This document shows positions 11,051 through 42,343 of a DNA stretch of 64,000 nucleotides, in pieces. The stretch is taken from positions 5,597 to 69,596 of the forward strand of contig URXV01000004.1 in the NCBI GenBank assembly GCA_900551865.1, given 5' to 3'. Position 1 is the first letter of the stretch. Each line of letters begins with the position of its first letter. Below the pieces are notes generated by a model. That model saw only the letters and a list, made by a program, of their open reading frames with translations, was not told the origin of the DNA and made no database searches. The stretch is from an uncultured Rickettsiales bacterium (GTDB lineage: Bacteria; Pseudomonadota; Alphaproteobacteria; RF32; CAG-239). The position numbers were made by a program, and so were the translations under genes.

Positions 11051-11398
11051 ATGAAAAATCTGAAAAAGATGTTGGTACTGTGCTCTTTGGCACTTGTATT
11101 CACGGCTGTGCTTGCCGATGCATCGTACGCTGAAAGCGTTATGGAAACCGGTATGAAAAAAGCTCTGGTTCTGTTCCAGCACATTAAAACCATTATTTTC
11201 GTAGTTGGTGCGTTTGGTTTGATTGGTATTGCGTTCCAGGCTATTTTCGGTAAGGTAAAATGGACATGGTTTGCTGGTCTTGCAGTTGGTTTGGCTATTC
11301 TGGCTGCGGCTGGTGCAATCGTAAACTACGCAACCGGCGGTAACATTAACGCTGGTCAGACGGGTGATACGTTCAGCCAGTCTGCTGACGGCTTGTAA
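11051..11398 (+). CDS. virB2: VirB2/TrbC-family T4SS pilin, paralogue 1
   Basis: RBS AGGAGA then ATG at 11051. Contains a signal peptide (..ADASYA) and two hydrophobic helices (IIFVVGAFGLIGIAF, FAGLAVGLAILAAAGAIV). About 115 aa. It is followed by its own terminator. Confidence 0.75.
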   Translation: MKNLKKMLVLCSLALVFTAVLADASYAESVMETGMKKALVLFQHIKTIIFVVGAFGLIGIAFQAIFGKVKWTWFAGLAVGLAILAAAGAIVNYATGGNINAGQTGDTFSQSADGL

Positions 11399-11426
11399 TC
11401 GGCAACTAACAAATAAAAAAGAAAAG

Positions 11427-11451
11427 AGCGTCGCTTTGCGGCGCTTTTTTT
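11427..11451 (+). terminator. Rho-independent terminator after virB2-1
   Basis: 8-bp stem AGCGTCGC/GCGGCGCT (one G-U pair), loop TTT, followed by T7. Confidence 0.7.
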
Positions 11452-11606
11452 ATCCGTAATATGCCGGCCTTATCCATGGGTGCCGTCTTATCTGTAATTC
11501 ATCGGTGTTATCCGCAGGGTATTGTTTTTCCTGTCACTTGTCGTTTTTATCTGCAAAGTGCCGTTTTCCACGCAATCTGTCGGTTTTGTCTGTAAAACAT
11601 CGTGCC
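11450..11606. repeat. Iteron-like array of about 8 degenerate direct repeats of 18-21 bp (TTATCYG-N7-GYCGKY)
   Basis: Units start at 11450, 11470, 11488, 11508, 11527, 11547, 11566 and 11586. Examples: ttatccgtaatatgccggcc, ttatccatgggtgccgtc, ttatctgtaattcatcggtg, ttatccgcagggtattgtt, ttatctgcaaagtgccgtt. Confidence 0.6.
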
Positions 11607-11628
11607 TGTTCGCGGTGCGCCTGATTTA

Positions 11629-11648
11629 AGTGTGAAATTTTTGTTACA
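11629..11648 (+). promoter_or_regulatory. Conserved 20-nt box AGTGTGAAATTTTTGTTACA, copy 2, 119 nt upstream of the virB2-2 start
   Basis: Exact copy of 10912-10931. Weaker similarity continues for about 24 nt downstream, ending in TAAAAA(A)CA in both copies. Confidence 0.5.
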
Positions 11649-11766: not shown

Positions 11767-12102
11767 ATGTTTGGACTTGGACGCAAATACGGATTCTTTG
11801 TTATGGTATTGGGTGCCGCAATTCTGCTGACGCCTGTACCTGCATTTGCTGACGGAGCGTTTGGCGGGCTTATAGCTTCGGGGCGGGAAATATTTACAGG
11901 GCTGCGCGAGATTATTTATCCTGCATCCGCCGTCGGCATTATTGCCGTTTGTATCGGCGGCTTTTTCGGAAATATCAACTGGAAATGGCTGACGGCGATT
12001 ATTCTGGGGCTGGTTGTTATCAGCCTGTGCGCAGGATTTGTTTCCATGTTTGCTCCGGACGGGGCTGAATCTATAGCCGAAGATATCGCTTTGGGAAATT
12101 AG
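11767..12102 (+). CDS. virB2: VirB2/TrbC-family T4SS pilin, paralogue 2
   Basis: RBS GGAGGGAGG. Signal peptide ending PAFA. Two hydrophobic helices (AVGIIAVCIGGFFG, AIILGLVVISLCAGFV). 111 aa. Confidence 0.65.
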   Translation: MFGLGRKYGFFVMVLGAAILLTPVPAFADGAFGGLIASGREIFTGLREIIYPASAVGIIAVCIGGFFGNINWKWLTAIILGLVVISLCAGFVSMFAPDGAESIAEDIALGN

Positions 12103-12111: not shown

Positions 12112-12477
12112 ATGAACAGAAATATAAAAATAGCCTTTTTGTTTGCCGTATGCGCTGTTTCTGTCGTTTCTTTTTGTGGAGAAGCAGAAGCTGCTTCGGG
12201 CGTATTTGAAACGTTGCGGCAGAAAACGGCGACATTTGCTTCCCAGTTGCGTGTTTTTGCCTATGCCATATCCTGCTTTGGGATTGTAATGTTTACGTTT
12301 CTGGCCATCAGCGGCAAAATCAATTTCAAACATTTGGGATATATTTTTATCAGTTTGTTTATGTTGTCGGCAACGGGAGCTGTTATTGATTATTTCAGCG
12401 GCAGTCATGCCAATCTGAAGTCCGAATTTAATGATACGTATATGAATGCGGTTCCGCGCAGCAGCCTCGGAAGCTGA
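12112..12477 (+). CDS. virB2: VirB2/TrbC-family T4SS pilin, paralogue 3
   Basis: RBS AGGAGGG. Signal peptide ending AEA. Two hydrophobic helices (YAISCFGIVMFTFLAISG, GYIFISLFMLSATGAVI). 121 aa. It starts 9 nt after paralogue 2. Confidence 0.65.
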   Translation: MNRNIKIAFLFAVCAVSVVSFCGEAEAASGVFETLRQKTATFASQLRVFAYAISCFGIVMFTFLAISGKINFKHLGYIFISLFMLSATGAVIDYFSGSHANLKSEFNDTYMNAVPRSSLGS

Positions 12478-12588: not shown

Positions 12589-12879
12589 ATGAAAGATGTT
12601 ATCCTGAAAGCAGTGGCTAATCCGCCCAAATTGTTTTGGGGGCCTGTTCTGCCGACAGCGCTGAATGCCGGTTTGCAGATACCGTTTATGTTTATGGCTA
12701 TCGGTATGGGTGATATCAATCCTCTGGTATTTTTAGTCAGTATTGTTTTGGGGCATTTGATTGTCGTAGCCCTCGGGGCAAAAGACCCCCACTTGTCGGG
12801 TATGATACAGGCTTTCGGCCAGACTAATGTTGTACCGCAGAACTTATACAAAGTGAAAGGGCATAAATTTGAACCTTGA
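12589..12879 (+). CDS. virB3: VirB3/TrbD-like T4SS protein
   Basis: 96 aa with N-terminal LFWGPVLPTALNAGLQIPFMFMAI plus a second hydrophobic helix. It lies immediately upstream of, and overlaps, virB4. Confidence 0.7.
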   Translation: MKDVILKAVANPPKLFWGPVLPTALNAGLQIPFMFMAIGMGDINPLVFLVSIVLGHLIVVALGAKDPHLSGMIQAFGQTNVVPQNLYKVKGHKFEP

Positions 12880-15322
12880 TTTTGACTTTTACACGCTTTT
12901 TATGGCCGGGCTGCAAAGCGCAGACGCGTTTGTTGCGACCTTTGGCATTATCGCTGCTGCCGCTATAGCGGTTTCCCTGGTTTCCAAAATAGGAACGTGG
13001 GTACTGCCGCAGCCGAGCGAGTCCCGCGTGGCTGACTTTCTGCCGTTTGACAGTCTTTTGTCAGACGGATCGACCCTGCGCTGCAGCAACGGGTCGTATG
13101 TCCGTGTGTTCAAGGTTGAAGGGGTGGATTTGACTTCGGCGCGCGAAGAAACGGTCTTGTCTATGTTTGAGGCGCGCAAATCCTGGCTGGATAATATGGC
13201 GGATTTGCAGATTACCTGTCGGGTAATTACCATCAGGGACCGGGTGCCGATGGAAAAAAACAAGGCCGACTTCGGCAATAAATGGCTGAAAATCGTTGAT
13301 GATACCTGGCGCGAAAATCTGAGCCGCGTTTATAAAAATGACCACTATATCATTCTGTCGATAGAAGATAAAAAAGACGCTGTCAAAGATTTAAACTATG
13401 CTTCGCAATCCGTCGTTGCTAATCTGAATGATTACGGTATCAAAGTTATGTACGAAGACGACGAAAGCCCGGCGGAAATGAGTCCCGTGTATCCGTTTGT
13501 CCGGGTGTTGAACCCGATCAGCCGCCCGGCGCCGAAAGCGCGCGGGGCGCAGGGGTTTCAATTAAAAGAGCTGTTGACCGCCGACGGAATTCATTTCACC
13601 GGCGAAGAAGGGGTTATCAAGTTTTTCTCCGGCGGCAAGGAAAAATTTGCCCTTACCATGGGGATAAGGAATTCCGGCGATTATATGGACGAAAGCATGA
13701 TTTCGTCGCTGCTGGCGATTGATTGCGAAATGACGGTTCTTCACAATATTCATCCGCTGTTTAAGCCCAAAGCGCGTATGATTTTGGTTCAGCAACAGAA
13801 AATGGCTGAAGTAACCAGCTTTTCCTCGGACGTTGTTGCGCAGTACAGTGAAGCGCTGGCTGCGATAGAAGACAGCGACGCCGACCACCAGTCGCTTGTT
13901 GAATATTCAATGAGTTTCATCTTAAAAGGCGATACGATGAAGGAAATTGAATTCGGCGAGAGTGAAGTCCAGCGTATCTGCCGGTTGTTCAGCGTAACGC
14001 CGGTTCGCGAAAACTGGATTGCTCAGGCAACATTTTTCAATCAGTTTCCGGGGTATGATACCTGTGGCAGAACATATTTTTATCTGTCAAGGATTGTATC
14101 GCTTGCCGTATCATTTGAACAATTGTCGACCGGCCTTCCGCGCAGTGACTGGGGCGAGGGTGCCATTACCGTTTTCCGCACCATGAGCGGGTCTCCGTAT
14201 CGTTTCCAGTTCCATATTTCCGCTGCTGAGTCAGCCGTGGCGCACTGCTGTATTGTCGGCCCGACCGGACAAGGTAAAACGACACTGCTGACGTTTCTGG
14301 CCGGACAGGCAATGCGGCACGGCGATTTGAAGGTCTATTTCTTTGACCGTCACCGCGGTGCGGAAATATTTACCCACATGGTACAGGGCGCCTATGTCGG
14401 CTTCAGCGGCGAACGCAAGAACGTATCGCTTAATCCTTTTGATTCCCGTGATACGATGAGCAACCGCGCTTTTCTCCGCAACTGGCTCAAGGCGATAACG
14501 ATGGCAAACGACGCGTTATCCGAACGTGAAGCCGCCCGGGCGGTTACGACGGCATTTGACTATCTGCGCCCGGAAGAGAGGGTTTTGAAAAACCTGTATA
14601 AGAGCTGTTTCTCTCCGACCGGCACGATGCGCCGCGAACTATACCGCTGGATAAACCCGGATCAGTACGGTAATATTTTTAACGCCGAGCACGATAGTCT
14701 TGATCTGAGCTCGAACCGCTTTGTCGCGTTTGACTTTACGGAGATTTTTGACGATGACACGCTGGCGGCGGCATCTATCAGCTATATTATGCATCGTATT
14801 CAGTCCGAAAGTACTGAAACCGGCGCTCCGGCTCTGATTATGATTGATGAAACGGCGCCGATGTTAAAACACGAAATGTTTCGTGACAATTTCATCAAAG
14901 GGCTTCAGGAAGGGCGTAAAAAACGCCAGGCATATCTTTGTGCGTTCCAACAGCCGAACATTGTTGACGAGCTGGGTGTCGGAGATGCCGTCCGCGGCCA
15001 GTGCAAGACGATGATTTTCTTCCGCAATACGCAGGCGACGCCGGAATCCTATGCCAAATGGAACCTGACCGACAGCGAGTATGATTTCATCAGCGGCAGG
15101 TCGTACCGCGACTGCCCGTATGCAATTTTGCTGAAACGTCCGGACGCCGGGGAAAACGGAGAGGGCGAGTCAGTTATTCTTGACGTTAATTTAAGCGGTC
15201 TCGGGCCTTATCTGAAGCTTTACAATTCAGGCATTAAAAACGTCTTGCTGGTGGAAAGTCTGGTCAAGGAATTCGGCGAAGACGGATTCGTAACCAAGTA
15301 TCTGGACGGTATGGGGGCATAA
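12869..15322 (+). CDS. virB4: VirB4/TrbE-family T4SS ATPase
   Basis: 817 aa. Walker A GPTGQGKTT, Walker B-like LIMIDE. The start is uncertain (TTG 12869 overlapping virB3, or ATG 12902). Confidence 0.9.
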   Translation: MNLDFDFYTLFMAGLQSADAFVATFGIIAAAAIAVSLVSKIGTWVLPQPSESRVADFLPFDSLLSDGSTLRCSNGSYVRVFKVEGVDLTSAREETVLSMFEARKSWLDNMADLQITCRVITIRDRVPMEKNKADFGNKWLKIVDDTWRENLSRVYKNDHYIILSIEDKKDAVKDLNYASQSVVANLNDYGIKVMYEDDESPAEMSPVYPFVRVLNPISRPAPKARGAQGFQLKELLTADGIHFTGEEGVIKFFSGGKEKFALTMGIRNSGDYMDESMISSLLAIDCEMTVLHNIHPLFKPKARMILVQQQKMAEVTSFSSDVVAQYSEALAAIEDSDADHQSLVEYSMSFILKGDTMKEIEFGESEVQRICRLFSVTPVRENWIAQATFFNQFPGYDTCGRTYFYLSRIVSLAVSFEQLSTGLPRSDWGEGAITVFRTMSGSPYRFQFHISAAESAVAHCCIVGPTGQGKTTLLTFLAGQAMRHGDLKVYFFDRHRGAEIFTHMVQGAYVGFSGERKNVSLNPFDSRDTMSNRAFLRNWLKAITMANDALSEREAARAVTTAFDYLRPEERVLKNLYKSCFSPTGTMRRELYRWINPDQYGNIFNAEHDSLDLSSNRFVAFDFTEIFDDDTLAAASISYIMHRIQSESTETGAPALIMIDETAPMLKHEMFRDNFIKGLQEGRKKRQAYLCAFQQPNIVDELGVGDAVRGQCKTMIFFRNTQATPESYAKWNLTDSEYDFISGRSYRDCPYAILLKRPDAGENGEGESVILDVNLSGLGPYLKLYNSGIKNVLLVESLVKEFGEDGFVTKYLDGMGA

Positions 15323-15356: not shown

Positions 15357-15395
15357 ATCACTCAACAAACGTATTATTTGACAGGGAGGGAAATT

Positions 15396-16604
15396 ATGGG
15401 GAAATGTAAGCGGCATACAGCTATTATCCTTTGTTGCGCCTCGTTTTTAATAAACAAGCCGGCTTACGCGTTTTGGCCCGTACTGGATTTTGGCGAGATA
15501 ATTCCGATTGTTTCAAATGTAACAACCTCTCTGGATTCATTGTCCCAGACCAAATCTCAGTTGACTGAATTAAAAAACAGTCTGAAAGCGATTGGCGACA
15601 GTATAGATACCATTTCTCAGTTTAGTCAGGATTTACGCAATAATCTGGATGATATTGCGGATATCGCCAATGAAAGCGCTGGAATTGTCAATGATAATCT
15701 TGGAACAAACATAGATATTCAAAACGGCGTTACCGACGTTATTGACAAGGTAAATAATGTGCAAAGCGGATTAGTAAATAATGTTGTTGAGCAGACACAG
15801 GGCGCTTTGGATCAGGCTGACGGTATGGCAGATAAAGCAACATCGGGAATTGATACGGCACAAAAAACCGGCAAAGATGCGGAAGATTTGTTGAACAAGG
15901 CTCAGGAAAAGACCCAAAAGCCGAATGCTGATACGGAAAAATCCGGCAGTCAGGAAATATCGGGTTCCTCAACCCCTGTTTCGTCGCAGCCTGAAGCCGT
16001 AGAGGAAGAGGAGGAAGAAGAAGAAATCCCCGATATAAATGACATGGCCGCATTGCGGGAAGAAATAAAGGCAGGCTTTGTTGTGGCCAGAGATGAAAAT
16101 AAAAAAATGGCAGAACAGCTTAATGATGTTATGGATGCATCAGTCAGCGCCCTGAATAAAACGACTGAAGAAAGCCGTTTAGCACTGGAGAAATTAGCTC
16201 AGGCAATCAGGGATACCGACCGGCTGGATAAAAAGGACAAAGAGATGCTGGAGAAAAAAATAGGAGAACTGCAGGTTCGGCAGCAGCAGCTGTCTGACAG
16301 GATGATTGCGGTAGCCGAAAGCGCAAAGGACGAATATAACCTGGAATACCAAAATAAAATTGCCGACGGTATTGATAATTACGAAAAAGTTGTAGAGCGC
16401 TATTTGCGGGGGGATGCATCACGGGAAGAAGTTTTTTCTGCCGGAGAGAAATTAAAAGAGGATGCGGCATTGTTGAATGTTGCTCCCGATAAAGGGATTA
16501 TAGCAGAATTAAACAAAGATGCGGAGATGTTGAAATCGGAGTTTGCCGCTTTGGCAGCAGAAATCAGAACAACGGAAAAGAAAGGGAAAGAAACCGTAAA
16601 TTGA
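15396..16604 (+). CDS. Secreted coiled-coil T4SS-associated protein 1 (VirB5/TrbJ-like N-terminus)
   Basis: RBS GGGAGGG then ATG. Signal peptide ..KPAYA followed by FWPVLDFGEIIPIVSNV..KSQLTELKN. Contains a Glu8 run. The C-terminal block SAKDEYNLEYQNKIADGIDNYEK aligns with SAKEDYNEQYSEKVAAAFDSYSQ of the next ORF. Confidence 0.5.
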   Translation: MGKCKRHTAIILCCASFLINKPAYAFWPVLDFGEIIPIVSNVTTSLDSLSQTKSQLTELKNSLKAIGDSIDTISQFSQDLRNNLDDIADIANESAGIVNDNLGTNIDIQNGVTDVIDKVNNVQSGLVNNVVEQTQGALDQADGMADKATSGIDTAQKTGKDAEDLLNKAQEKTQKPNADTEKSGSQEISGSSTPVSSQPEAVEEEEEEEEIPDINDMAALREEIKAGFVVARDENKKMAEQLNDVMDASVSALNKTTEESRLALEKLAQAIRDTDRLDKKDKEMLEKKIGELQVRQQQLSDRMIAVAESAKDEYNLEYQNKIADGIDNYEKVVERYLRGDASREEVFSAGEKLKEDAALLNVAPDKGIIAELNKDAEMLKSEFAALAAEIRTTEKKGKETVN

Positions 16605-16703: not shown

Positions 16704-18938
16704 ATGAGTAGGAAAACAGTAAACGGAAAAATTGCAGTAATGGCTGTAATCTGCAGCTTTCTTATTGCAGTGCGCCCGGTACATGCGTTCGTGTGGCCTG
16801 TAATCGATTTGACAGAAATAGTTTCCTTTACAAACAGCATCAGTACAGGGCTAAACCGGATTACCAACGCCAAAAGTCAGTTGGATAATGTAACCAATAC
16901 GATTAAAACAATTGGAGATCAGGTCGCTTCGGTTAAAAAATACGCAGCCGATTTAAAAGGGACAATAACCAATATCAAAGACAGCGTAAGTACGATTACC
17001 GATAATATTGAAGAGACGACCGATAATGTGTCGGGCATTGTTGATGATGTCAATAATACGCTTAACGGTGCAGGCACGACCGAAAATGAAAATGCGGAAA
17101 CGACGGTTGACAGCGTAAACGAACAAGTTGATTCGGGTGCTTCGGAAGAAGATGTACAGACGGTTGTTGATGAAGCCAAAAAAGAATCGGAGACCGTAAG
17201 GGAAAATGTTAACAAGACATTTGATGAAGCCGATAAAGCTATCAATGAATCGCTTGACGCCGCCAATCAGGCCTTGGATATGCTTGTCGACAGCGTTAGC
17301 GGATATGAAGGGCTGAGTGATGAAGAACGCGCCGGATTCGAACAGGAAGCCGGAAATATCAAAAATGATATTGACGGATTAAAGGATACTTCGTCAGACA
17401 TCATCGCTTCCGCTAAGGAAGACTATAACGAACAGTACAGTGAAAAAGTCGCGGCGGCATTTGACAGCTACAGTCAGGCTGTCAGCGATTATTACTCGGG
17501 AAAAACCGACCGCGAAGCGTTAAATCAGGCCGGTGAGGATTTTAAAAACAGCGTAGCTTCCCTTGATGCCGGAATAGACCAGAGCGTTATCGACGGGTTA
17601 GTTGCAAATGCGCAGGAAATTGCAGATAAGATTGATGCGCTTGAAGAAAATATGATGAACAGCATCAGCAATTCAGGGGATTATTCAGACGGCAGTGAGC
17701 AGATGTCTTTTTTAAGGCCGCAAATGCAAGAAAAGTTTGTACGGTCTGGTAAAGTATATGCTTTCGATTTTCACTCGGAAAACTTGTCTTTTTTTCTGAA
17801 AGGGGTTTATGCCGAAGATGCCGATAAAAGTTTTTTGCTGTCTAAAGAACTGGCATGCGATAATTTGGATGTTGCCGACGTAGAAGAAAATCCCGGAAAG
17901 TTAAGAACCTGCGTTGTAAAGGCTAAAACTGAAAAAGACCTGTATCCGAATGCATTCAAAGAAGAACTGTATAAGGATTATCAGAAAAACGGCGTTTACA
18001 AACACATCATTGAAGATTATAGCATTGCCAATATTGTCAGTTTAAGCAAGGCCAAACAATTTTCTGCGACTTGGGGGAGTTTGGAACCGGACGATGACAG
18101 CAATAAGGGAACGCTGTATGTCTTGCGCAAAACCCTGAAAGACGTAGACAATACGCGTAACGGTTTTGCCTTAATGGGGATGACCGATATTGAATCGCCC
18201 AAACTATGGAGCGAAATTCGCCGTATTGACGCATTGAACCGTGCTAAGGCCATGGCGCAGGATTTTGAACGCGGAACGACGCTTTTTTTGGACGGACGCG
18301 ATTCCGAGTTTGTCGAAGCAACCAAAAGGAATTGGGGAACAATGCAAAACGATGACTTGGATGCCAATGAAAATAAGGCAGTAAAAGGAAAAGCCGTTTT
18401 TTCAAATGTAATCTTGTCAATCTGCGGTCTGCGCGCCAAAGATATTTCCGTTTCGGAAATAAATAAAACCGATACGGCATCTATTGCCCAGAAAGAAAAG
18501 AATTTGGCTGATTGCCTGTTTAAATATGCTGAGGCTGCCAGCAAAGGGACAAGCAATGGTTCTGCCATAGGGGCAGATCCCGAGGCCGCCAAAAAAGAAT
18601 GGCGCGATAAACAGACTAAGGCCTATAACGATTCTGCATTTAATAATCTGACACTGGCGGTGGTAAATAACTATAAATCAAGTTTGGACTATGTTGATCC
18701 TAAAAAGCTGCCTGATCCGGATAAGGATAAAAACATTGTCAGTATGCAGGACGGGTTGAAGGAAAGTACGACAACCAAAGACGACTATGCTGCCGGAGCT
18801 CAGATAAACTACTATTCGACACAGCAGATTTTAAGCATAGTAGATGCGGATGCTCAAAATCAGCAGACGGAAATTTTGAAAGATTTGGCAACGTTTGATT
18901 ATAACTATTTTGGCAAAACCACGGGTGGAGAAGGCTGA
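16704..18938 (+). CDS. Secreted coiled-coil T4SS-associated protein 2, paralogue of protein 1 with an extra ~430-aa C-terminal domain
   Basis: Signal peptide ..RPVHA followed by FVWPVIDLTEIVSFTNS..KSQLDNVTN. The N-terminal ~310 aa are collinear with the previous ORF. Confidence 0.5.
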   Translation: MSRKTVNGKIAVMAVICSFLIAVRPVHAFVWPVIDLTEIVSFTNSISTGLNRITNAKSQLDNVTNTIKTIGDQVASVKKYAADLKGTITNIKDSVSTITDNIEETTDNVSGIVDDVNNTLNGAGTTENENAETTVDSVNEQVDSGASEEDVQTVVDEAKKESETVRENVNKTFDEADKAINESLDAANQALDMLVDSVSGYEGLSDEERAGFEQEAGNIKNDIDGLKDTSSDIIASAKEDYNEQYSEKVAAAFDSYSQAVSDYYSGKTDREALNQAGEDFKNSVASLDAGIDQSVIDGLVANAQEIADKIDALEENMMNSISNSGDYSDGSEQMSFLRPQMQEKFVRSGKVYAFDFHSENLSFFLKGVYAEDADKSFLLSKELACDNLDVADVEENPGKLRTCVVKAKTEKDLYPNAFKEELYKDYQKNGVYKHIIEDYSIANIVSLSKAKQFSATWGSLEPDDDSNKGTLYVLRKTLKDVDNTRNGFALMGMTDIESPKLWSEIRRIDALNRAKAMAQDFERGTTLFLDGRDSEFVEATKRNWGTMQNDDLDANENKAVKGKAVFSNVILSICGLRAKDISVSEINKTDTASIAQKEKNLADCLFKYAEAASKGTSNGSAIGADPEAAKKEWRDKQTKAYNDSAFNNLTLAVVNNYKSSLDYVDPKKLPDPDKDKNIVSMQDGLKESTTTKDDYAAGAQINYYSTQQILSIVDADAQNQQTEILKDLATFDYNYFGKTTGGEG

Positions 18939-19636
18939 TGAAAAAGAAACTGTGTATAGCCCTGTTCCTTTCTTTGTTCGTGTATACGAGAGAAGCGTAT
19001 GCAATTTTTGACATAATGGCAAAAGTGCAGTCGGCGCTGGAACTGTATAAGGATGTAGAAAATAAGGTTCAGCAATATACCAAAAAGCTGCGCGATATAG
19101 AAAAGAGGGCGCGGCAGGGGTTTGACTTGGCAAGCAGCTGTTACAAAAACCCGAAACAATGTGATCCGAAAGCTCTGGAGGCTTTTGCCAAGGATTCGGA
19201 AAGTTATGTAAAAAGCATGAAGGAGATTAGGGTTATGCCGGGCGCCGAAGAGCTGAAAAAAGGCGATTTGAAGAAAAAAAGCGACAAAAGCCTGGCGCAA
19301 ACGGTTGAAACCAGCTATATTTACCAGCGCGGCCAGGGGGATGATATTGAAAAGACCAGTGAAAACCGCCGTTTGATTAATGCCGTCATAGCGGATGATG
19401 CGGCGCTGCTGTTTGCCAAGGGCGTTTCGGCACGACAGAGCATACTCGTCGAAGACGGTTCTCTGTATCAGGTTGAATTCAAAAAGAATAATATTGATGA
19501 AATTCTAAATGCGCAAAACATCGTAGCTATCGCGACACAACAGCGTTTGAACCGGATTTTGGAGCTTCGCGCATATATGGCGAGCGCGGGAGCGACGGCT
19601 GAACTGACGCGTCAAACCAGAGAAGCGGATGAATAG
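18938..19636 (+). CDS. VirB5/TrbJ-like secreted protein (best size match to canonical VirB5)
   Basis: 232 aa. Signal peptide ..REAYA then IFDIMAKVQSALELYKDVENKVQQ. Helical throughout. One-nt overlap (TGATG) with the upstream gene. Confidence 0.4.
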   Translation: MKKKLCIALFLSLFVYTREAYAIFDIMAKVQSALELYKDVENKVQQYTKKLRDIEKRARQGFDLASSCYKNPKQCDPKALEAFAKDSESYVKSMKEIRVMPGAEELKKGDLKKKSDKSLAQTVETSYIYQRGQGDDIEKTSENRRLINAVIADDAALLFAKGVSARQSILVEDGSLYQVEFKKNNIDEILNAQNIVAIATQQRLNRILELRAYMASAGATAELTRQTREADE

Positions 19637-27564: not shown

Positions 27565-27580
27565 ATTAGAGGTACGGTTG

Positions 27581-28345: not shown

Positions 28346-28367
28346 TTGAATGTTTAGGGTATGCATA

Positions 28368-36300: not shown

Positions 36301-36940
36301 CGAAGTCATCGGCGAAGATATTGTCATAGATGTTCAGGGCAATGTAAAAGGGTATCTGAACGCGTTCGGAGATATCATTGACGTTGAAGACAAAATTGCG
36401 GCGACAGTCCTTCCCGGCGGTACGTCAAACAAAAACTATAGTGTCCTGAAACATGGGGTCGTTTTGGATTATTCGGGGCGCATAATCGGGCAGGTCGTAG
36501 CGGATGGGTCGGTAGTTTCGGCTGACAATCGCCGCATCGGAAAAATACTGAGCTCAGGGCAGGCTGTTAATGACAGGGGGATTCTCTTAGGAGAAATCGT
36601 TGAAGGGGATATTGTAATAAACGAACAGGACAAAGTGGTTGGTTTTGTTAATGCCGAAGGAAAAGTACTGGACGAGGAGCAGTCTGTTATAGGAAAAATG
36701 ATTTCTTCAAATTTAGTTGTAGATAACAATGGAAAAATTATGGGACATCCGTATAAAATAGGTGCTAATATACTAGGGAACGGAGGAAAATATTTTGGTC
36801 GCCTTGCCCCGAACGGCAATGTGCTGAGTATAACAAACGGAAGGATTGGATATTTGAAGAGCAACGGCTCATATATAAATATCAGAAATCAGGTTTCCGG
36901 ATATGTATTGGATGAAGTCGCTCAAAACCGGAGGAACTGA
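30353..36940 (+). CDS. Giant single-pass membrane protein made of ~100 copies of a 17-residue repeat
   Basis: ATG at 30353 overlaps the virB9 stop (ATGA); the ORF is open from TTG 30332. Short basic N-tail plus one TM (IILTIGIIAGIFFLFGLLVI), then a ~170-aa non-repeat domain. The rest, to the C-terminus, is the unit (I/V/L)G-x-(V/I)-x-x-DG-x-(V/I)-x-D-x-x-G-x-(V/I). Confidence 0.85.
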   Translation: MNENTRFEEYERKTRKIILTIGIIAGIFFLFGLLVISSDEENYNPEETSPDFVENQNILPDVSVDTEPVFIDAEDTPASERKKPIKVTPAQINMNKFILGVDTQNQSVLTIGTDGSESIHIERVELVEETEDGFEFRDKCRNRDLRGDETCNVLITWVPHLPGNVQNNFKIIWYETRLDKSSAKSEEVSIKGSAVYPEDTRQGCDASTGCSIGGDGIGAHRLAIGPNGEIIGYIDEAGNVHDRDGNIIGRVNEDGMVVDSDGNIIGVAQNMKLAYDKDGNIIGYVKTDGTVVDLQGEVIGKALPDGTIVNSKGEVIGKAVEAGFVYDENGKIIGRVLPDGTVVDINDPKKIIGRLNENGEVVDENGNVIGKVTSSGNIVVDENGNVLGVVMPDNSVVDKDGNIVGYVDENGNVYRVAEEKIGTNGESRKIVYDKDGKAVGYVDENGKVVKFSKDDKPKVIGKVGASRRLAYDKDGNVIGYVDKDGTVRDFKGNTIGKMDKDGNIVGKDGKIIGKAGAYAKLALDKDGKVIGHIDEQGRVFDHNGKHIGNVDKNGNIISTERAGNSADKKRIALGKDGKPIGYIDDDGNVVDFDGNVIGKVNDKGDIIDKNGRRIGSAGDYATLAFDKSGKVMGIVDDKGRVIGKDGKLLGFVDKDGKIIGTNGKIIGKAGTSRRLAYDKNGKFIGYVDTDGTVKGCGGIVLGKVDKDGNILDKNNRVIGKAGEVRELAFNGKGVFIGYIDDKKRVIDCSGKIIGVVDKNGNIIESSGENLGTAGNFKRLAYDKDGKVIGYVTPDGTVKDFKGNLIGRMSADGTILDKKGRAVGKAGDFRKVATDKNGNIIGYVDEHGRVVDEKGKIVGFIDKNGNVVKAGDTVIGKTCVRKKVVYNRRNQIIGFVEANGTVKDFNNKVIGNDKNGDVADTKGILIGKTGIALNVVRRSDDVVIGYVDDKNYVRGNENKIAGLVDLKGNVLAVRENIIGKLDADKKTLRDKGGEIIGYMKNNNFAFDKSNEIIGYVNDKGEVVASGEIICTACKSARLAYDKNGNILGYVDENGNVIGPDGKIVGYVDKDGNVIGANGEIIGKIGDGRRLALDKNGKVIGYIEPDGTVKDFKGNILGKVDKDGNIVDKDGNIIGKAGAERRLALDKDGKVLGYVDENGRVIDENGNVLGMVDKDGNIIGINGDIIGSVGEAKNLAYDKDGNIIGYVGENGEVRDFAGNTLGYVDDNGNILNNTGEIIGSVGKNGKLAYDKDGNVIGYVDENGNVYDFDGNLIGKANPDGTITDQYGRVIGRVGGTAGLAVDKDGNVIGYIGEDGNVYKENGELLGFLDDDGNVVGVTGEVLGKADISKRLAYDKDGKVIGYIDDDGTVHDFDGNLVGYLGEDGTIHDINGNIIGKAGDLSKVVVDENGKVIGYVDDKGHVIGNGGKVIGFVAEDGTVHGSSGEVIGRLAQNGSGTLSVVNRRAVLDGNGNVIGYVDENGNARDFDGNILGTVQEDGSIKDSSGKIVGRAGDNMEFTADENGKITGKVGEYSNLAVDNDGNVIGYVGKDGKVYDADGLVIGFIDENGNVITSRGIKIGAVIKKDMIAVSPNGYSLGSINNRGEVVNAKDEVIGKILPNSLIRATEGNSIIGKTVVGGLAVGWGCRHYGYVDRDAKVKKDGQDTGYRMLFDRSIVDKDGNYTGDVAKIGWVRDDKCNIIGKAGSDGYVRGENGEYVGCVNPDGGVLNPDGKVIGKVFEMSYALYYSGEMMGLLTPDGSIKSGAGTVGCANLQGEVLNKDGFIVGQVMDKSQAYDLNGKFINNLSTFGYDSTEVIPNTKILLNRLIVNPKKEIKGIVLPEKNIVVDSNGKVIGHLFADGYVYNQKGIAVDRFIYDGSSFYANRPGRLLPQGNVVDFNGDYIGFVNGDGTVIDVLGTVLGRIDAKGRMFNEKGEYKGGVLQTGVGIGYDGSYLGYVSKSGKVIDVDGNMSGLVSSDGHVLDKNKQIIGEVIGEDIVIDVQGNVKGYLNAFGDIIDVEDKIAATVLPGGTSNKNYSVLKHGVVLDYSGRIIGQVVADGSVVSADNRRIGKILSSGQAVNDRGILLGEIVEGDIVINEQDKVVGFVNAEGKVLDEEQSVIGKMISSNLVVDNNGKIMGHPYKIGANILGNGGKYFGRLAPNGNVLSITNGRIGYLKSNGSYINIRNQVSGYVLDEVAQNRRN
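31620..35080 (+). repeat. Higher-order in-frame tandem repeat (~57 aa / ~170 nt, about 20 copies) inside the giant gene
   Basis: The recurring block is KAG-x4-LAYDKDGKVIGYVDEDGTVKDFKGNxIGKVDKDGNIVDKDGxIIG. Many exact 15-20-nt DNA matches recur, such as gataaagacggcaatattgt. The copy number is an estimate by eye. Confidence 0.7.
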
Positions 36941-36941
36941 T

Positions 36942-39900
36942 TTGCGCATTAAGATATTTGGATTAGGCAGGATTATATTGTCTGCGGCGTTGTTTTGGAG
37001 TATCAGCCAGAATGCCGTTGCAGCAGATATGAGTGCGCTTAATTTTAATGGAGATCTTATCGGTAAAGTCATTCCGGACGGTTCTGTTATTAACTTCAAT
37101 AATGAGCTTGTCGGTCATATTACGGCTGACGGCTTTGTGTTAAATGAGGATAACAGCCTGGCAGGCGGCATTGTTCCGCAGGGAATAGCCATATCTTATA
37201 ACAACAGCATCTTGGGAAAAGTCAACAATGACGGTTCTGTAACATCAATTAACGATAATCTTGTCGGAAAGGTTCTGCCCAATGGTTTGGTTGTAAATGA
37301 TAATTATGATGTACTGGGAGCCGTGGTCTCTCCCGGGCTAGTTTACAATGATTCGGGCAGTATCGTCGGAAGAGTTTCCGGAGACGGGCGTTTTTATAAT
37401 CTTGCGGGAGAAAATTCGGGGTTTGTAACCGCGGCAGGATATGCTTACGGCTATGCCGGAAGCGAAAGAAAAATCTTTTTGGCCGGCAGGTTGATTTCTT
37501 CCAAGATGGTTGTTTCATCGCAGGGGAAATTTTTGGGAAGTATCGCCCCGGACGGAAAAGTAATTGATTTGAAGAAAAATGTTATCGGCAATATTCACGC
37601 CAACGGTTTTGCATACAGCCCAGACAATCAGGTAATAGGCCATGTTGTCGAGGGCGGGTATGCTTTTGCTCTTGACGGAAGTTATATGGGGGTTGTCAGC
37701 TACAACGGAGAAGTCGTCAATAATGGTACGGTTGTTGCCCTGGCAGTTAGCGGCAATCGCGTTATTAACAGGGAAGGCGGCATTATTGGCTTTACCGTAA
37801 GTATGTCTGCTACGGCTAATACGTTGGACGGGAAATATCTCGGGCGGATTACGGCAGACGGAAAAATCGTACGGGGGCGAAATAAGGTTGGAAAAATCGG
37901 CGCATCCGGGCATGTTATAGATGACAAAGGGACGATTATTGGCACCGTAAATGCAACCGGGCCGATATTTGATTATTTAGGACAGCTTCGGGCAAATGCT
38001 TCGATTGGCGGAAAGGTCGTTTCTTTGGAAGGCGTTGACTTGGGGATAATGAAATCCGATGAAGCTTTTGATGGCAACGGCAAACGCATCGGTAAAATCT
38101 TGTCTGAGCGGCTAAATTTTAACAACAGCAATGACTTCATCGGTATCAGTGGCGTTAATTCAGTTTTGGAAGTTGGCGGAAAAACTTATAGAATATCGCC
38201 TTATGGCTATGTTTTCAATGAAACGGGAAATGTTAACGGAAGAAATTTCAACTTTGGCGACATTTATTCTCCTGAGGGAACAGCCCTGTCCTACACATCA
38301 GGCAATGGAAAAACAGAAAACGGTTCTCTGAATGAAATTGCTCGATTAACCGGCTCCGGTATATTTCTGGATAAAAATGATAAGCCGTTAGGTAAAATAA
38401 TTGAAGACAAATATATAACGGACTTTTCTGGAGAAAGTCTGGGAACTGTCAATTCGACAAATCTGGTTGTAAACGGGCAGAATAAGGCTTTTGCCAAAGT
38501 ATTGCCGGATGGCAGCGTTGTGAGCCTTTCCGGTCGGATTTCCCGGAATTACGGTAGAGCCGGAAGTGCCCCGGTAAGCATCAGCATAAACGGCGACTAT
38601 CTGGGAACGAATTTAATAAGCGGACAGGTTGTAAACGGAAATGAAACGGTCGGAAAAATAAGCTCTAACGGATACGTTTTGGATAACATGGGAGCGTTGT
38701 ACGGAACTGCTCTCTCTATGGGAGCCGTTGTTTCGCCTGAGTGCGGATTTTTAGGCGTAGTTTCTGACGGCGGAGAGGCAAGAACAAGCAAAGACGCATA
38801 TTTGGGAATGGTTTTGGCAAATGGTCAGGTTGTTAATGAAACGGAGCAGGTCGTCGGCCATGTCATCCACCCGCGTACGGTAATTGGCGAAAACGGAACG
38901 TCAATTGGGGTGTTAAGTCCGTTGGGAACGGCTCTGAACTATAAAAATCAGAATTTGGGATGTCTGGATATCAATGGTAAAGTTCGAAATGCCCAGAAAG
39001 AAATTATCGGTCAGATAATCCCGTATATGTCGGTAATGGGGTTTGATGATAAAATTATCGGATATACGGATTTTTATGGTAATGTGGCAGATAGTTCCGG
39101 AATTCAAACCGCTGTTATTGATTTAGACGGCAGTATTAAGGCCAAAGATGGGCGCAATATTGGTGTTCCTTTTAAATACACGGTAGCTTTTGACCGGAAT
39201 AACGTTTATCTTGGGCGCGTAAAGGCTGATGGCAGTGTAGTTTCCGATAGCGGCGAAACTTTGGGGCAAGTTAGGTATAACGGCGAAGTAATCACTAAAA
39301 ATGGCGGGAACGGCTACGCGTTATATGATTTGTATGTCTATGACAATGAGGGGAAAACCGTCGGATATATCGCCAAAAACGGTCGGGTTTACAGCGTAAT
39401 GGGAGAAATTATCGGAACTGTTTATCAGGGATTTGTACTGGATAAAAAACAGAATTTAATCGGTAGAGGAGCAAGGGGCTATGAAATTCTTGATGCGCAG
39501 AAACAGGTAATAGGTCATTTGAAGTTAGATGGTTCGGTTGTTAATGTCAAAAATGTAGAAGTTGGAAAACTTCAGCCGGATGGAAAGGTAACGGATGCTG
39601 GCGGCAACGTAATTGCTGTGGCCGAAAAACTCCAATATTATCAAAAACCGGTTGAACCGGAAAATGGAGTAAAGACGGCTGTTGAAACCAAAGGTGAAGA
39701 AACGGAAAATAAAACTCCGGCAGACGAAATTCATGAACAAGACGAAACTGATAAAACAGCAGAAAGCAGTGATGCGCAGTCAGGCATATCCACGGAGGAA
39801 GAAAATATCCCGGAGCTGACCGAGGAAGAAAAAGAGGCCGCTGATACCAAAATAAACCATAAAGTCATAGGGATAGCCGTAACACCGGGAGGAAGGTATA

Positions 39901-41264
39901 TCGGTGATGTATACAGCAATAATAAGGTAATAGATGAAACCGGAACCGTTGTTGGCAACATGGGAGAAAATGGCGAAATCACCGATAACGAGGGGAATAC
40001 GGTAGGCTCTCTGCAAGAGCAGAAATCGGAAGATGCCAAAAATATTAATACAAGATGGTGGCAGCAGATTGCAAGCGGAGCTACGGTTAATCCCTGGGAT
40101 TACCGAAACGAAGTAACCAATGTCGGTCCCGGCGGCGGTATAGGTCCCGGCGGCAGATATAATCCGAAACGTGCCGCTATATTGTCCCAGCTGCAGGAAG
40201 AGCGCCGTAGGACAATGACTGCGGCAAAAGTAATGCCCGGCTATAATGCTGCTTCATACACCGGTTGGCAGGACGATTGGGGGATAAACCGGGCAGTTTC
40301 GACTTTGCGGGTTAATATGGATAATATGATTACCGCAGATAAACCGATACCGGCTGTTTTGGCCAGATCCTTGATTTCTTTGGGTGAAGCGCCTGTTACT
40401 GCAATTGTGGAAAGGAATGTGTACGGAGATTCGGGGCGTAACGTTATTATTCCGGCCGGAAGCCGGGTAATCGGCGGGCTGCAGACAGTAGATGTAGAAA
40501 GCCGTTTTGACAATTCAAGTGGCGGTGTCAAACTTGAAATATCTTGGAGCAGGATAATTCGTCCTGACGGGATTGCATTTCTTCTGGATGCAGGAAGGAC
40601 GCAGACCGGTGATGCGCAGGGGCGCGGTGGCGGCGCTTTGGGATATGTTGATGAACAGCTGGTCAAAAAATATACGTTGCCAATCGTAGGAACGATGGTC
40701 AGCTCGGCAATAACGTATATGATGGCTGCTGATGAAGACAGTACCGGAGAGGTGGAAACGTCCAAACAGCAGGCAGCAACAGATGCCCGGCAGGAATTTA
40801 TGGATAAGATGGATCAGATATTGCAGGAAATTATTGACAGCAAATCGCAAATTCAGCCGGTTACCTATGTTCCGGCCGGAACAAGAATAATCATTTATCC
40901 GATGACCGATTTGTGGCTGAGAAGTACGAAAGATATTGAAAAGAACGTTGAGACAGCGCGTCCGGGCGGCGGAGACGGCGGTTTGGTCAACGAAGTATAT
41001 CCTGACGATGGCGGGACAAGAAGCACATCTCAGGTAGAAGGAAATAATGCCAATAACAGCCAGAAGGTTATTTTGGGCAATCAGGCGCAGACCAACAATA
41101 ATAGCGGTGGTGATGGCCTTGTAAACGAAAATCCGCAGAATAATCCGAATGCTCCTCAGCCGAGAAAGAATATCGGGGCAATTCCGCCGCCGGCAGCAGA
41201 CGGATCGGTCACGGAAGCTCCCGAGAGTGAAGAAGAAATATCCGGCGATATTGAACTGTTCTAA
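36942..41264 (+). CDS. virB10: VirB10/TrbI-family protein with ~900-aa N-terminal 17-residue-repeat region (CagY-like architecture)
   Basis: RBS GGAGGA then TTG at 36942 (the ORF also has ATGs at 36903 and 36912). N-terminal anchor/signal IFGLGRIILSAALFWSISQNAVA. About 50 repeat units follow (LIGKVIPDGSVINFNNE, LVGHITADGFVLNEDNS ...), then an acidic linker. The VirB10 C-terminal domain is at 40335-40920 (PAVLARSL..VTAIVERNVYGDSGRNVIIPAGSRVIG..WSRIIRPDG..TYVPAGTRIIIYPMTDLW). A ~110-aa Gly/Asn/Pro-rich tail ends the protein. Confidence 0.8.
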   Translation: MRIKIFGLGRIILSAALFWSISQNAVAADMSALNFNGDLIGKVIPDGSVINFNNELVGHITADGFVLNEDNSLAGGIVPQGIAISYNNSILGKVNNDGSVTSINDNLVGKVLPNGLVVNDNYDVLGAVVSPGLVYNDSGSIVGRVSGDGRFYNLAGENSGFVTAAGYAYGYAGSERKIFLAGRLISSKMVVSSQGKFLGSIAPDGKVIDLKKNVIGNIHANGFAYSPDNQVIGHVVEGGYAFALDGSYMGVVSYNGEVVNNGTVVALAVSGNRVINREGGIIGFTVSMSATANTLDGKYLGRITADGKIVRGRNKVGKIGASGHVIDDKGTIIGTVNATGPIFDYLGQLRANASIGGKVVSLEGVDLGIMKSDEAFDGNGKRIGKILSERLNFNNSNDFIGISGVNSVLEVGGKTYRISPYGYVFNETGNVNGRNFNFGDIYSPEGTALSYTSGNGKTENGSLNEIARLTGSGIFLDKNDKPLGKIIEDKYITDFSGESLGTVNSTNLVVNGQNKAFAKVLPDGSVVSLSGRISRNYGRAGSAPVSISINGDYLGTNLISGQVVNGNETVGKISSNGYVLDNMGALYGTALSMGAVVSPECGFLGVVSDGGEARTSKDAYLGMVLANGQVVNETEQVVGHVIHPRTVIGENGTSIGVLSPLGTALNYKNQNLGCLDINGKVRNAQKEIIGQIIPYMSVMGFDDKIIGYTDFYGNVADSSGIQTAVIDLDGSIKAKDGRNIGVPFKYTVAFDRNNVYLGRVKADGSVVSDSGETLGQVRYNGEVITKNGGNGYALYDLYVYDNEGKTVGYIAKNGRVYSVMGEIIGTVYQGFVLDKKQNLIGRGARGYEILDAQKQVIGHLKLDGSVVNVKNVEVGKLQPDGKVTDAGGNVIAVAEKLQYYQKPVEPENGVKTAVETKGEETENKTPADEIHEQDETDKTAESSDAQSGISTEEENIPELTEEEKEAADTKINHKVIGIAVTPGGRYIGDVYSNNKVIDETGTVVGNMGENGEITDNEGNTVGSLQEQKSEDAKNINTRWWQQIASGATVNPWDYRNEVTNVGPGGGIGPGGRYNPKRAAILSQLQEERRRTMTAAKVMPGYNAASYTGWQDDWGINRAVSTLRVNMDNMITADKPIPAVLARSLISLGEAPVTAIVERNVYGDSGRNVIIPAGSRVIGGLQTVDVESRFDNSSGGVKLEISWSRIIRPDGIAFLLDAGRTQTGDAQGRGGGALGYVDEQLVKKYTLPIVGTMVSSAITYMMAADEDSTGEVETSKQQAATDARQEFMDKMDQILQEIIDSKSQIQPVTYVPAGTRIIIYPMTDLWLRSTKDIEKNVETARPGGGDGGLVNEVYPDDGGTRSTSQVEGNNANNSQKVILGNQAQTNNNSGGDGLVNENPQNNPNAPQPRKNIGAIPPPAADGSVTEAPESEEEISGDIELF
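37050..39600 (+). repeat. 17-residue repeat region of the VirB10-like protein
   Basis: Same periodicity and consensus as the upstream giant, but more diverged and less charged. A few more units follow the acidic linker (39860-40010). Confidence 0.65.
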
Positions 41265-41293
41265 AGTTTAATACTGTCGGGCAGGCTTCAAAA

Positions 41294-41322
41294 CTTGACG
41301 AAAAAGGGCAGACGTGGTACAA
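41294..41322 (+). promoter_or_regulatory. Near-consensus sigma70-type promoter (TTGACG-17-TACAAT with TGn) upstream of virB11
   Basis: -35 TTGACG at 41294-41299, 17-nt spacer, TGG then TACAAT at 41317-41322. It sits 41 nt upstream of ATG 41363. Confidence 0.55.
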
Positions 41323-41362
41323 TAAAACAAAATGGAAAATATTTTTTTGGAGTAAGAAAGTT

Positions 41363-42343
41363 ATGGGAAAGTTGGACGATGAGGTGCTCTGCTCCGTTTT
41401 GAGGCCGCTTGCCTATTGGTATGAACAGGAAAATATCGAGGAAGTTGCAATCAACCATCCCGGAGATATTTGGCTCCGCTTGCGCGGAAAACGGGCTTTT
41501 CCTTGGGTAAACTATAAAGACCCCAAACTCTCAAGAGAATATTTGACCAATCTTCTGCATATTATTGCCAATTTGAATGATCAGGAGTTTGATCCTATTA
41601 ACGGGTCTCCTGTAGTTTACGCCCGAATTCCCGGAGGGCATCGTTTCACCGGCGTGGCCGGAAAAAACATTGAATACGATTTGGACGATTCGGCAACGGG
41701 GGGCATAGCCATAACAATACGTCTTCATACGGATGATGTTGCTTTCGGTTTTGGCGATTACGGGCTGGAGCAAGGTAAAAGGCTAAAGGAAATAAATCCG
41801 TTAAAAAACATAAAAGACCCGGATGACGCTTATGAACGTCTTCTTCTTGCGTTACGCCGCGGAGACCATATTCTTGTCAGCGGTGGTACCGGTACCGGTA
41901 AAACGACGTTGTTGAACAATTTGCTAAAGCTTTTGGATATTCATAAGAGGGTTATTACCGTAGAGGATACGCGGGAACTTAATGTGCCGCAGCCAAACCA
42001 TGTTCACATCGTCCTGTCGCGTACGGAACAGACTAACAGTATGGATTATTCCAAAGTTATCGACTTGATTGTGCGTTTTACGCCTGATGCCATTATTGGC
42101 GGTGAGATTTCAACCAGCAATGCTGCCGCCATCTGGGAACTGATGGGTTCCGGTCATGATAACTGCTTGGCGACAATCCATGCGGAAAGTTCGACTGCTG
42201 CCTATGAAGCGTTTGTAAAACGTATAATGCGCACTCAGCCTCACATTGATGTGGAAAAAACCATTGAAGAAATGCGTCGCAAACTCCATGTCGTCCAAAT
42301 TGTCCGAGATGGAAACATCCGCGGCATAACCGAAATCACCTGA
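41363..42343 (+). CDS. virB11: VirB11/TrbB-family T4SS ATPase
   Basis: 326 aa. Walker A GGTGTGKTT, VITVEDTRE, and His box GHDNCLATIHA. Confidence 0.9.
   Translation: MGKLDDEVLCSVLRPLAYWYEQENIEEVAINHPGDIWLRLRGKRAFPWVNYKDPKLSREYLTNLLHIIANLNDQEFDPINGSPVVYARIPGGHRFTGVAGKNIEYDLDDSATGGIAITIRLHTDDVAFGFGDYGLEQGKRLKEINPLKNIKDPDDAYERLLLALRRGDHILVSGGTGTGKTTLLNNLLKLLDIHKRVITVEDTRELNVPQPNHVHIVLSRTEQTNSMDYSKVIDLIVRFTPDAIIGGEISTSNAAAIWELMGSGHDNCLATIHAESSTAAYEAFVKRIMRTQPHIDVEKTIEEMRRKLHVVQIVRDGNIRGITEIT

Follow-up and report, generated by a model that had tools for sequence, protein, structure and literature searches.

An expanded type IV secretion operon of uncultured gut Alphaproteobacteria, with its VirB6 most probably encoded in a separate companion locus

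What kind of type IV secretion system (T4SS) has no VirB6 in its main operon? The question is raised by 64,000 nucleotides of DNA deposited as an uncultured Rickettsiales bacterium (GTDB lineage Bacteria; Pseudomonadota; Alphaproteobacteria; RF32; CAG-239), positions 5,597 to 69,596 of the forward strand of contig URXV01000004.1 (NCBI GenBank assembly GCA_900551865.1), a stretch that we refer to as the window. An earlier note had described on it a 31-kb VirB/Trb-type T4SS locus in which no VirB1, VirB6, coupling protein, or relaxase was visible. The answer that we favor, at a probability of roughly 0.62, is that the locus is the main operon of an expanded P-type (VirB/Trb, MPF-T-like) T4SS that is chromosomally fixed and vertically inherited in a clade of uncultured gut Alphaproteobacteria, that has its VirB6 encoded elsewhere, and that serves contact, adhesion, or protein delivery.

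The operon comprises 17 co-directional open reading frames (ORFs) on the + strand at window positions 11024-42343, which we assigned to families by Pfam scan, with topology taken from Kyte-Doolittle hydropathy in all six frames; the Pfam matches and ORF coordinates bear out the gene inventory of the earlier note in every material respect. The scaffold and energizing parts of a P-type system are all present, namely VirB2, VirB3, VirB4, a VirB7-like protein, VirB8, VirB9, VirB10, and VirB11. Three VirB2/TrbC pilin paralogues come first: a (11024..11398; PF04956, 37.8 bits; signal peptide and two transmembrane [TM] segments), b (11767..12102; PF04956, 30.5 bits), and a divergent, VirB2-like c (12112..12477; PF04956 at a sub-threshold 15.9 bits, with the signal peptide and two-TM topology of a and b). 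The next protein, of 96 amino acids (aa), is VirB3-like (12589..12879) and has no Pfam match; the sole basis of its assignment is alignment and synteny with plasmid proteins (27-31% identity to the syntenic ones, among which that of Microvirga is annotated VirB3), and inside the clade it is 70-96% conserved. The VirB4 ATPase (12869..15322; CagE_TrbE_VirB, PF03135, E 1.5e-9) has R388 TrwK as its top PDB match (E 8e-48). Two VirB8 paralogues, a (26474..27232; PF04335, 51 bits) and b (27578..28345; PF04335, 68 bits), share 30% identity; the PDB sequences nearest to b are 4MEI, 4KZ1, and 4LSO, all deposited as VirB8, which we take to be Bartonella proteins (the organism is absent from the search output). 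Between the two lies a 62-aa VirB7-like lipoprotein (27376..27564), assigned by its lipobox (LAAC), its synteny, and an SPCACI motif common with the lipoproteins of Erythrobacter and Microvirga plasmids. VirB9 (28350..30356; CagX/VirB9, PF03524, 54.6 bits) continues through a long low-complexity linker into a SPOR (septal peptidoglycan-binding) domain at its C-terminus, residues 596-666 (window 30134-30356; PF05036), borderline at 21.2 bits against a Pfam cut-off of 21. The VirB11 ATPase (41363..42343; T2SSE/VirB11, PF00437) is the last gene of the operon and is convergent with engB. Promoter, terminator, Rfam, and tRNA scans returned nothing notable.

Taken as a whole, the locus is a heavily remodeled VirB/Trb-type T4SS, as had been proposed, with about two thirds of its coding sequence lacking a counterpart in model T4SSs. 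The slot between VirB4 and VirB8 (15378-26436, 11.06 kb) holds five helical, non-membrane proteins with signal peptides, labeled here H408, H744, H232, H448, and H1818, and two repeat giants take up another 11 kb, their repeats being identified by Pfam as beta-flowers. One giant, G2202 (30332..36940, +; 2,202 aa), is a bitopic inner-membrane protein with an N-terminal TM segment and approximately 2,000 aa of beta-flower repeats (Bflower_2, PF21785, in 27 stretches, E 7e-145). The other is VirB10 itself (36903..41264, +; 1,453 aa), in which the TrbI domain (PF03743, residues 1143-1339) is preceded by an N-terminal beta-flower extension of about 1,100 aa (PF21785, in nine stretches), its repeats related to those of G2202. 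The beta-flower fold is without an established function (PMC10584680).

Pfam and hydropathy scans also agree with the earlier note that VirB1, VirB6, VirD4, and relaxase are missing from the window. No SLT (VirB1), VirD4, or relaxase domain was detected by Pfam there, over all large ORFs and ten small ORFs of the flanks, which yielded nothing but pilus and housekeeping genes, and VirD4 and relaxase domains were likewise absent from every locus read, including the 10 kb to the left of the window and the companion loci described below, a scope of approximately 100 kb around the loci. The claim that no protein has five or more hydrophobic helices holds for the + strand of the locus in the six-frame scan, and a polytopic VirB6/TrbL was found neither in the window nor, for 35 related species, at a distance of up to 10 kb from VirB4. 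The only match with five hydrophobic segments is an antisense ORF (25642-26388, - strand), which we considered as a hidden VirB6 and rejected as spurious; it lies inside the gene for H1818, which is conserved and under purifying selection.

Where, then, might VirB6 be encoded? In three related loci (L068, L082, and L083; L numbers denote the loci that we fetched), virB11 is directly followed, in convergent orientation, by a companion locus. VirB11 of L068 is 74% identical to that of the window, the lineages around L068 (L029, L031, L047) have the same VirB6-less main operon, and L082/L083 belong to a very abundant human-gut species. The companion locus encodes, in order, a 281-aa hydrolase-like protein, a 58-aa two-TM protein, four polytopic proteins, a dual helix-turn-helix (HTH) regulator, and four or five further proteins. 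The four consecutive polytopic proteins (approximately 889, 448, 831, and 976-1,001 aa, with six or seven hydrophobic helices each) are mutually paralogous (BLASTP E 1e-27 to 1e-6). Judged by the Pfam gathering score of 25.9 for TrbL/VirB6, matches to that family are found for the 448-aa protein (28.1 bits), an 856-aa orthologue in L086 (26.4 bits), and the 1,001-aa protein (29.5 bits), the last of which also carries a Peptidase_M23 domain. This M23-VirB6 fusion family falls into 48 sequence clusters at 26-100% identity and is roughly as diverse as the T4SS clade; on plasmids, matches to the fusion were limited to M23 domains. In the L086 and L087 metagenome-assembled genomes (MAGs), the companion locus is unlinked from the T4SS and has a type IVb pilin gene on one side and dnaJ-like housekeeping genes on the other. 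Because a companion locus occurs in sister lineages whose main operon is the same and likewise lacks VirB6, and because the M23-VirB6 family is itself so diverse, the VirB6 and the wall-cutting enzyme of the window's genome are most probably encoded in such a separate locus elsewhere. The loss of VirB6 and VirB1 functions that the earlier note had implied is thus not borne out, as the companion locus of sister lineages with the same operon encodes VirB6-like proteins and an M23 peptidase. Possible substitutes for VirB1 are the M23 peptidase fused to VirB6, in the sister lineages, and the SPOR domain of VirB9.

Several further features of the companion loci (L068:10991-20956; L082:2334-19169; L086:1400-18068) may be recorded here. 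The dual-HTH regulator is highly conserved, at approximately 75% nucleotide identity between lineages, and among the other products of the locus are a lipoprotein of approximately 420 aa and several proteins without a known family. Downstream of the companion locus in L084, at 18066-21239, lies a tandem-repeat region of repeated peptide-coding units together with an ORF that by eye resembles an IS200-type transposase. Several companion-locus contigs from different assemblies have similar lengths, approximately 12-15 kb, a sign that the assemblies may break at flanking repeats.

The operon is widely shared. Across 35 GTDB species, mostly labeled uncultured Alphaproteobacteria and sampled from the gut of humans, ruminants, and mice and from similar sources, gene order on the VirB4 side is kept. 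The same right half recurs in metagenome contigs, where in the window's clade virB11 is followed by engB-yidC. The human-gut MAG 'Acetobacter sp. 46_36' encodes a VirB4 identical to the window's, and many human-gut contigs carry exact copies of it. VirB4 identity stands at 82-96% across most of the 35 species and at approximately 70% in the most distant; VirB11 is 92-97% conserved in the window's clade, G2202 and VirB10 show 52-71% and 50-61% identity across species, and the five helical proteins show 25-65% among species. Within the species, the ratio of nonsynonymous to synonymous substitution rates (dN/dS) falls at 0.00-0.15 for all genes. The ATPases and pilins have the lowest values, and the highest belong to H408, H1818 (which evolves faster than any other gene of the operon), and a 466-aa protein of the adjacent pilus cluster; the fastest-evolving parts are presumably the exposed ones. 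These ratios indicate that the system is functional and under purifying selection. They also bear on the idea of a decaying, non-functional remnant of a conjugation system, which might account for the absence of VirB6, VirB1, and VirD4 from the window; given that every ORF is intact in all species, that no gene exceeds a dN/dS of 0.15, and that the ATPases are more than 90% conserved in the window's clade, we regard it as hardly credible.

The origin of the system is best approached through plasmids. In a comparison set of 72,556 plasmids, canonical systems show approximately 25% identity to the VirB4 of the window, and a small group stands apart at 30-35% (Microvirga pMVF16-3, Sphingosinicella p1, and the Erythrobacter aureus and Paracaedimonas plasmids). 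The closest annotated VirB4 proteins are those of the Microvirga, Sphingosinicella, and Erythrobacter MOBQ plasmids (34-35% identity), whose gene order is MobA/MobL relaxase ... VirB2-VirB3-VirB4-VirB5-helical protein (approximately 420-450 aa)-VirB7-VirB8-VirB9-VirB10-VirB11-VirD4. No VirB6 is detectable by Pfam between VirB5 and VirB7 in the Erythrobacter aureus, Microvirga, and Sphingosinicella plasmids; in the more distant Paracaedimonas plasmid, one is. In the plasmid slots that we read (L041:22418-24658; L042:22378-25245; L088:11436-13581), a hydrophilic helical protein stands in place of VirB6, and the Microvirga slot holds an additional 228-aa protein with three TM segments. These MOBQ plasmid systems thus resemble that of the window in their core order (B2-B3-B4-[VirB5, helical protein]-B7-B8-B9-B10-B11) and in the same VirB7 motif. 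They differ from it in having a MobA/MobL relaxase and VirD4, single-copy parts, and VirB9 and VirB10 of normal size, and in lacking a beta-flower protein and, in the flanks read, annotated type IVb pilus genes. Since its nearest relatives are the conjugative systems of MOBQ plasmids (VirB4 approximately 35%), the gut system looks like a domesticated member of the MOBQ conjugative family from which the relaxase and the coupling protein have been lost. It would have descended from the same T4SS family as the MOBQ plasmids of free-living Alphaproteobacteria and then been elaborated, with three pilin paralogues, a VirB5 slot enlarged to five fast-evolving proteins, two VirB8 proteins, a SPOR-tagged VirB9, and the pair of G2202 and extended VirB10.

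The same relatives raise the question of whether the window carries an integrated conjugative or mobilizable element whose relaxase, coupling protein, and origin of transfer (oriT) lie outside it. The nearest relatives are indeed conjugative or mobilizable plasmid systems with a MobA/MobL relaxase and VirD4, and type IVb pili, one of which is encoded next to the operon, commonly accompany conjugation systems, as in R64 and PAPI-1. The chromosomal setting speaks otherwise. To the right of the operon follow engB, yidC, yidD, rnpA, gpsA, recF, dnaN, dnaA, rpsT, fpg, mfd, and recG; past the left edge of the window lie another T2SSE ATPase, atp F0 genes, dciA, and an XerC/D-type recombinase. The same site, from the atp operon to engB-yidC-dnaA, is occupied in dozens of species, with VirB4 divergence graded by species, and in the system 11 kb encode lineage-specific secreted proteins and another 11 kb encode repeats. 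The locus is not flanked by an integrase or by attachment sites, and the sole nearby recombinase is the XerC/D-type gene, which stands among housekeeping genes. We therefore hold a mobile element to be very unlikely, and the chromosomal, vertically inherited operon remains the preferred reading. Two details of the surroundings are worth noting. Only 51 bp separate the end of the operon from engB, and approximately 8 kb separate it from recF-dnaN-dnaA (window 42394-51446), the rnpA-yidD-yidC-engB neighborhood being typical of a replication origin region. At window 61789-62560 (- strand), two adjacent short ORFs, one of 121 aa and the other of 130 aa, match separate parts of Acyl_transf_3 and are probably a frameshifted or split acyltransferase gene.

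We turn now to the five secreted helical proteins, which fill the slot where VirB5 and VirB6 would be expected. H408 (15378..16604, +) has a VirB5-like N-terminus by hhalign to plasmid VirB5 and an acidic insert; H744 (16704..18938, +) combines a VirB5-like helical N-terminal half with a conserved all-helical C-terminal domain; H232 (18938..19636, +) is VirB5-sized, with two conserved cysteines in the family alignment; H448 (19649..20995, +) has an N-terminal module akin to H232 and H744; and H1818 (20980..26436, +) extends over 1,818 aa. All five have Sec-type N-terminal signal sequences, read from their translations, and no hydrophobic segments past them. None belongs to a family in Pfam (including PF07996, VirB5/TrbJ), NCBIfam, or PHROGs, where only coiled-coil noise was returned, and H1818 also has no PDB match. 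Profile alignments nonetheless relate them to one another and, in part, to VirB5. H408 is paralogous to residues 1-330 of H744 (hhalign E 5.6e-43), and a short N-terminal module, made up of the signal-peptide end, an Asp-containing motif, and the first helix, is common to H232, H448, H744, and H1818 with probabilities of 83-96% (96% each for H448 against H232 and H744; 83% for H1818 against H448). The H408 N-terminus aligns with the VirB5 of the plasmid relatives, one of which is PF07996-positive, at 94% probability (E 1e-7, 54 columns, hhalign), and H744 does so at 74%; H232 gave no match to plasmid VirB5. Beyond its N-terminal module, H448 has no detectable relatives, and a comparison of its family with the plasmid helical protein at the VirB6 position revealed no similarity.

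Structure prediction and wider searches add to this picture. AlphaFold2 models H744 residues 320-744 as all-helical (predicted local distance difference test [pLDDT] 78, predicted template modeling score [pTM] 0.77), and Foldseek found nothing in the PDB with E below 0.2; the C-terminal domain is thus confidently predicted to be an all-helical one without a solved analogue. H232 is modeled as three long helices plus an insert (pLDDT 67), again with no PDB match of E below 0.2. The family profiles of H232, H744, and H448 recovered only generic helical bundles from all PDB sequences, and neither TraC, TrwJ, nor TrwI. Against 1.84 billion representative proteins, the H232 profile yielded 92 hits; of the 40 remote ones, none carries a VirB5 Pfam domain, and of three that we looked up, two lie in the same T4SS architecture (L044, L047) and the third is on a contig too short to tell (L046). 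We conclude that at least two of the five proteins appear from these alignments to be VirB5-derived, with the rest occupying the same slot and sharing the entry module. None of the five is VirB6, in keeping with the earlier note, which had named the discovery of a VirB6 among them as a refutation; H408 and H744 have a VirB5-like N-terminus instead.

The helical proteins permit another answer to the opening question, namely that the system is truly VirB6-less and that a periplasmic stalk or platform built from five soluble, Sec-exported helical paralogues with VirB5-like modules replaces the VirB5 and VirB6 pentamers. The locus has no polytopic ORF in any of the 35 species, the Erythrobacter and Sphingosinicella plasmids have the hydrophilic helical protein of approximately 420-450 aa at the VirB6 position, the bulk of R388 VirB6 is periplasmic with only two helices anchoring it (2025 review, PMC12857230), and look-ups of companion-locus assemblies gave no tie to the window's species. 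If this were true, it would be the first T4SS lacking a component regarded as universal, with a scaffold of beta-flower-extended VirB10 and G2202 supporting the stalk and working with the type IVb pilus. Yet sister lineages with the same operon have four VirB6 paralogues beside virB11, the 48 clusters of the M23-VirB6 family (26-100% identity) are about as diverse as the T4SS clade, and VirB6 is highly conserved among all T4SSs (PMC12857230). On balance we consider a T4SS without VirB6 unlikely, and retain the reading in which VirB6 is encoded elsewhere.

A further element of the region is a type IVb pilus cluster, divergent from virB2 and assigned by Pfam (161..10759, - strand), which encodes a bundlin-like pilin (161-829), a T2SSF platform (864-1985), and a T2SSE ATPase (1997-3667), as well as a 527-aa protein without a known family, an R64-type PilO, a secretin, TcpQ, and the 466-aa protein, also without a known family. 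This complete, R64/Tcp-like cluster adjoins the T4SS in every lineage examined, including the distant L029, L044, and L047, and in L086 and L087 a further type IVb pilin gene closes the companion locus; taken jointly, the two associations suggest that pilus and T4SS function as a single apparatus. In a ruminant MAG, the interval from the pilus cluster to virB2 contains a 610-aa ORF with nine TM segments (L027:6834-8663, - strand) that is absent at this position in the other species.

How might such an apparatus operate? We propose that a VirB2 pilus or stalk is built on a VirB6 platform with energy from VirB4 and VirB11: the VirB6 paralogues of the companion locus would form the inner-membrane and periplasmic platform at which the VirB2 paralogues polymerize, the fused M23 peptidase would open the wall in VirB1's place, and the SPOR domain of VirB9 may anchor the core to peptidoglycan. 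Because the repeats of G2202 and VirB10 are related and G2202 has an N-terminal TM anchor, the two may enlarge or extend the envelope-spanning core. The helical proteins would be exported by Sec and loaded from the periplasm, either as tip or stalk subunits or as cargo; VirB5 in R388 joins the tip/stalk from the periplasm, and pertussis toxin is the cargo of Ptl (PMC12857230). The adjacent type IVb pilus would give attachment, and the output would be contact, adhesion, or protein delivery to host or neighboring cells, with no DNA conjugated. In view of the lack of any visible coupling protein or relaxase, gene content points to a system that is probably a contact/adhesion organelle or a protein secretion system and not a conjugation machine. 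T4SSs without VirD4 are known, namely Ptl, Brucella VirB, and ComB (PMC12857230), and Trw (PMC2883598).

It is also possible, though doubtful, that the system is an effector-translocating T4SS of the rvh or VirB/D4 type, with its VirD4 encoded elsewhere, that injects cytoplasmic effectors into host epithelial, protist, or bacterial cells. Its scattered, duplication-rich organization (two VirB8, four VirB6, separate islets) recalls that of rvh (PMC2653234), VirB11 is kept, and the carriers are gut-associated. However, virD4 follows virB11 both in rvh and in the plasmid relatives, where here engB or the companion locus does. The loci read contain no VirD4 Pfam domain, and candidate effectors were not identified. 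The reading that we prefer, of a fixed T4SS for contact, adhesion, or protein delivery with its VirB6 elsewhere, must itself be weighed against several points that tell against it. No homologue of the companion locus occurs in the window, and none of the assemblies carrying a companion locus (we looked up GCA_902489675.1, GCA_948690825.1, GCA_054265175.1, GCA_017465405.1, and GCA_964463185.1) matched an assembly known for a window-type operon. Companion sequences compared with the window and with all fetched loci, at both the nucleotide and the protein level, matched nothing outside the L067/L068/L070 lineage, and GC content gives no discrimination for tying the companion locus to the window's species. 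The VirB5 homology consists of a short N-terminal match that includes the signal-peptide end, with no such match for H232, and the structure searches of the helical proteins produced none. Finally, the function is inferred from gene content alone, and VirD4 and relaxase were looked for around the loci rather than in whole genomes.

As the region is conserved and under purifying selection, the approximately 40 kb of T4SS plus pilus, together with the companion locus, make a prime candidate for the attachment to, or manipulation of, hosts or neighbors by uncultured gut bacteria. Assemblies of the carriers, all uncultured, come from many gut samples of humans, ruminants, and other animals, and literature searches on the T4SS of RF32 or of gut Alphaproteobacteria found nothing relevant. 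The region amounts to a natural experiment on T4SSs, with a VirB6-less operon, four extended VirB6 paralogues (one of them fused to M23), and five diverged proteins in the VirB5 slot, and it assigns the beta-flower, a recently named fold, to a defined machine as part of VirB10, a placement for which our literature searches found no prior report. What should hold lasting interest is this elaborate, conserved, and widespread architecture, along with the unexplained absence of VirD4 from the loci read.

Literature searches likewise found no already characterized T4SS subtype with this gene order, which the earlier note had set out as a further refutation, and its likening of the locus to Bartonella Trw and Rickettsiales rvh proves apt. 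A third system also invites comparison: the Cag system of H. pylori has a giant VirB10 homologue with repeats (CagY), a VirB9 homologue of increased size (CagX), and many proteins specific to the system, and its island keeps a VirB6-like CagW and a VirD4 (Cag-beta). Cag is therefore similar to the window's system as an expanded machine with a giant repeat VirB10 (cf. review PMC12857230). No sequence relationship was seen, however, beyond the shared VirB domains, and the Cag repeats are unrelated to beta-flowers.

Bartonella Trw, which is very close to plasmid R388, shares a different set of traits. It is derived from conjugation, has no coupling protein, has amplified TrwL/VirB2 and TrwJ/VirB5, and acts in host-cell adhesion (PMC2883598); here, no VirD4 was seen in the loci read, and there are three VirB2 proteins and five VirB5-slot proteins. 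Trw amplifies near-identical tandem copies and keeps its VirB6 (TrwI) in the operon, whereas the paralogues here are ancient and highly diverged, VirB6 is absent from the operon, and the plasmid relatives reach only approximately 35% in VirB4.

The rvh system is, like that of the window, a chromosomal, vertically inherited, alphaproteobacterial P-type T4SS with duplicated scaffold genes, including VirB8 (PMC2653234). Its genes lie in separate islets and include four to five tandem extended VirB6 paralogues (PMC2653234), to which correspond here the two VirB8 and three VirB2 proteins and, in the sister lineages only, four tandem extended VirB6 proteins in a separate locus. The differences are equally marked: rvh lacks VirB5, has virD4 directly after virB11, and has duplicated VirB4 and VirB9, whereas the system described here has five VirB5-slot proteins, no visible VirD4, engB after virB11, single VirB4 and VirB9, the beta-flower giants, an attached type IVb pilus cluster, and, in the sister lineages, the M23-VirB6 fusion. 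The likeness to rvh is one of architecture, and an rvh-like "archipelago with duplications" would have arisen outside Rickettsiales. The closest functional analogies are rvh and Trw, and the system is a member of neither.

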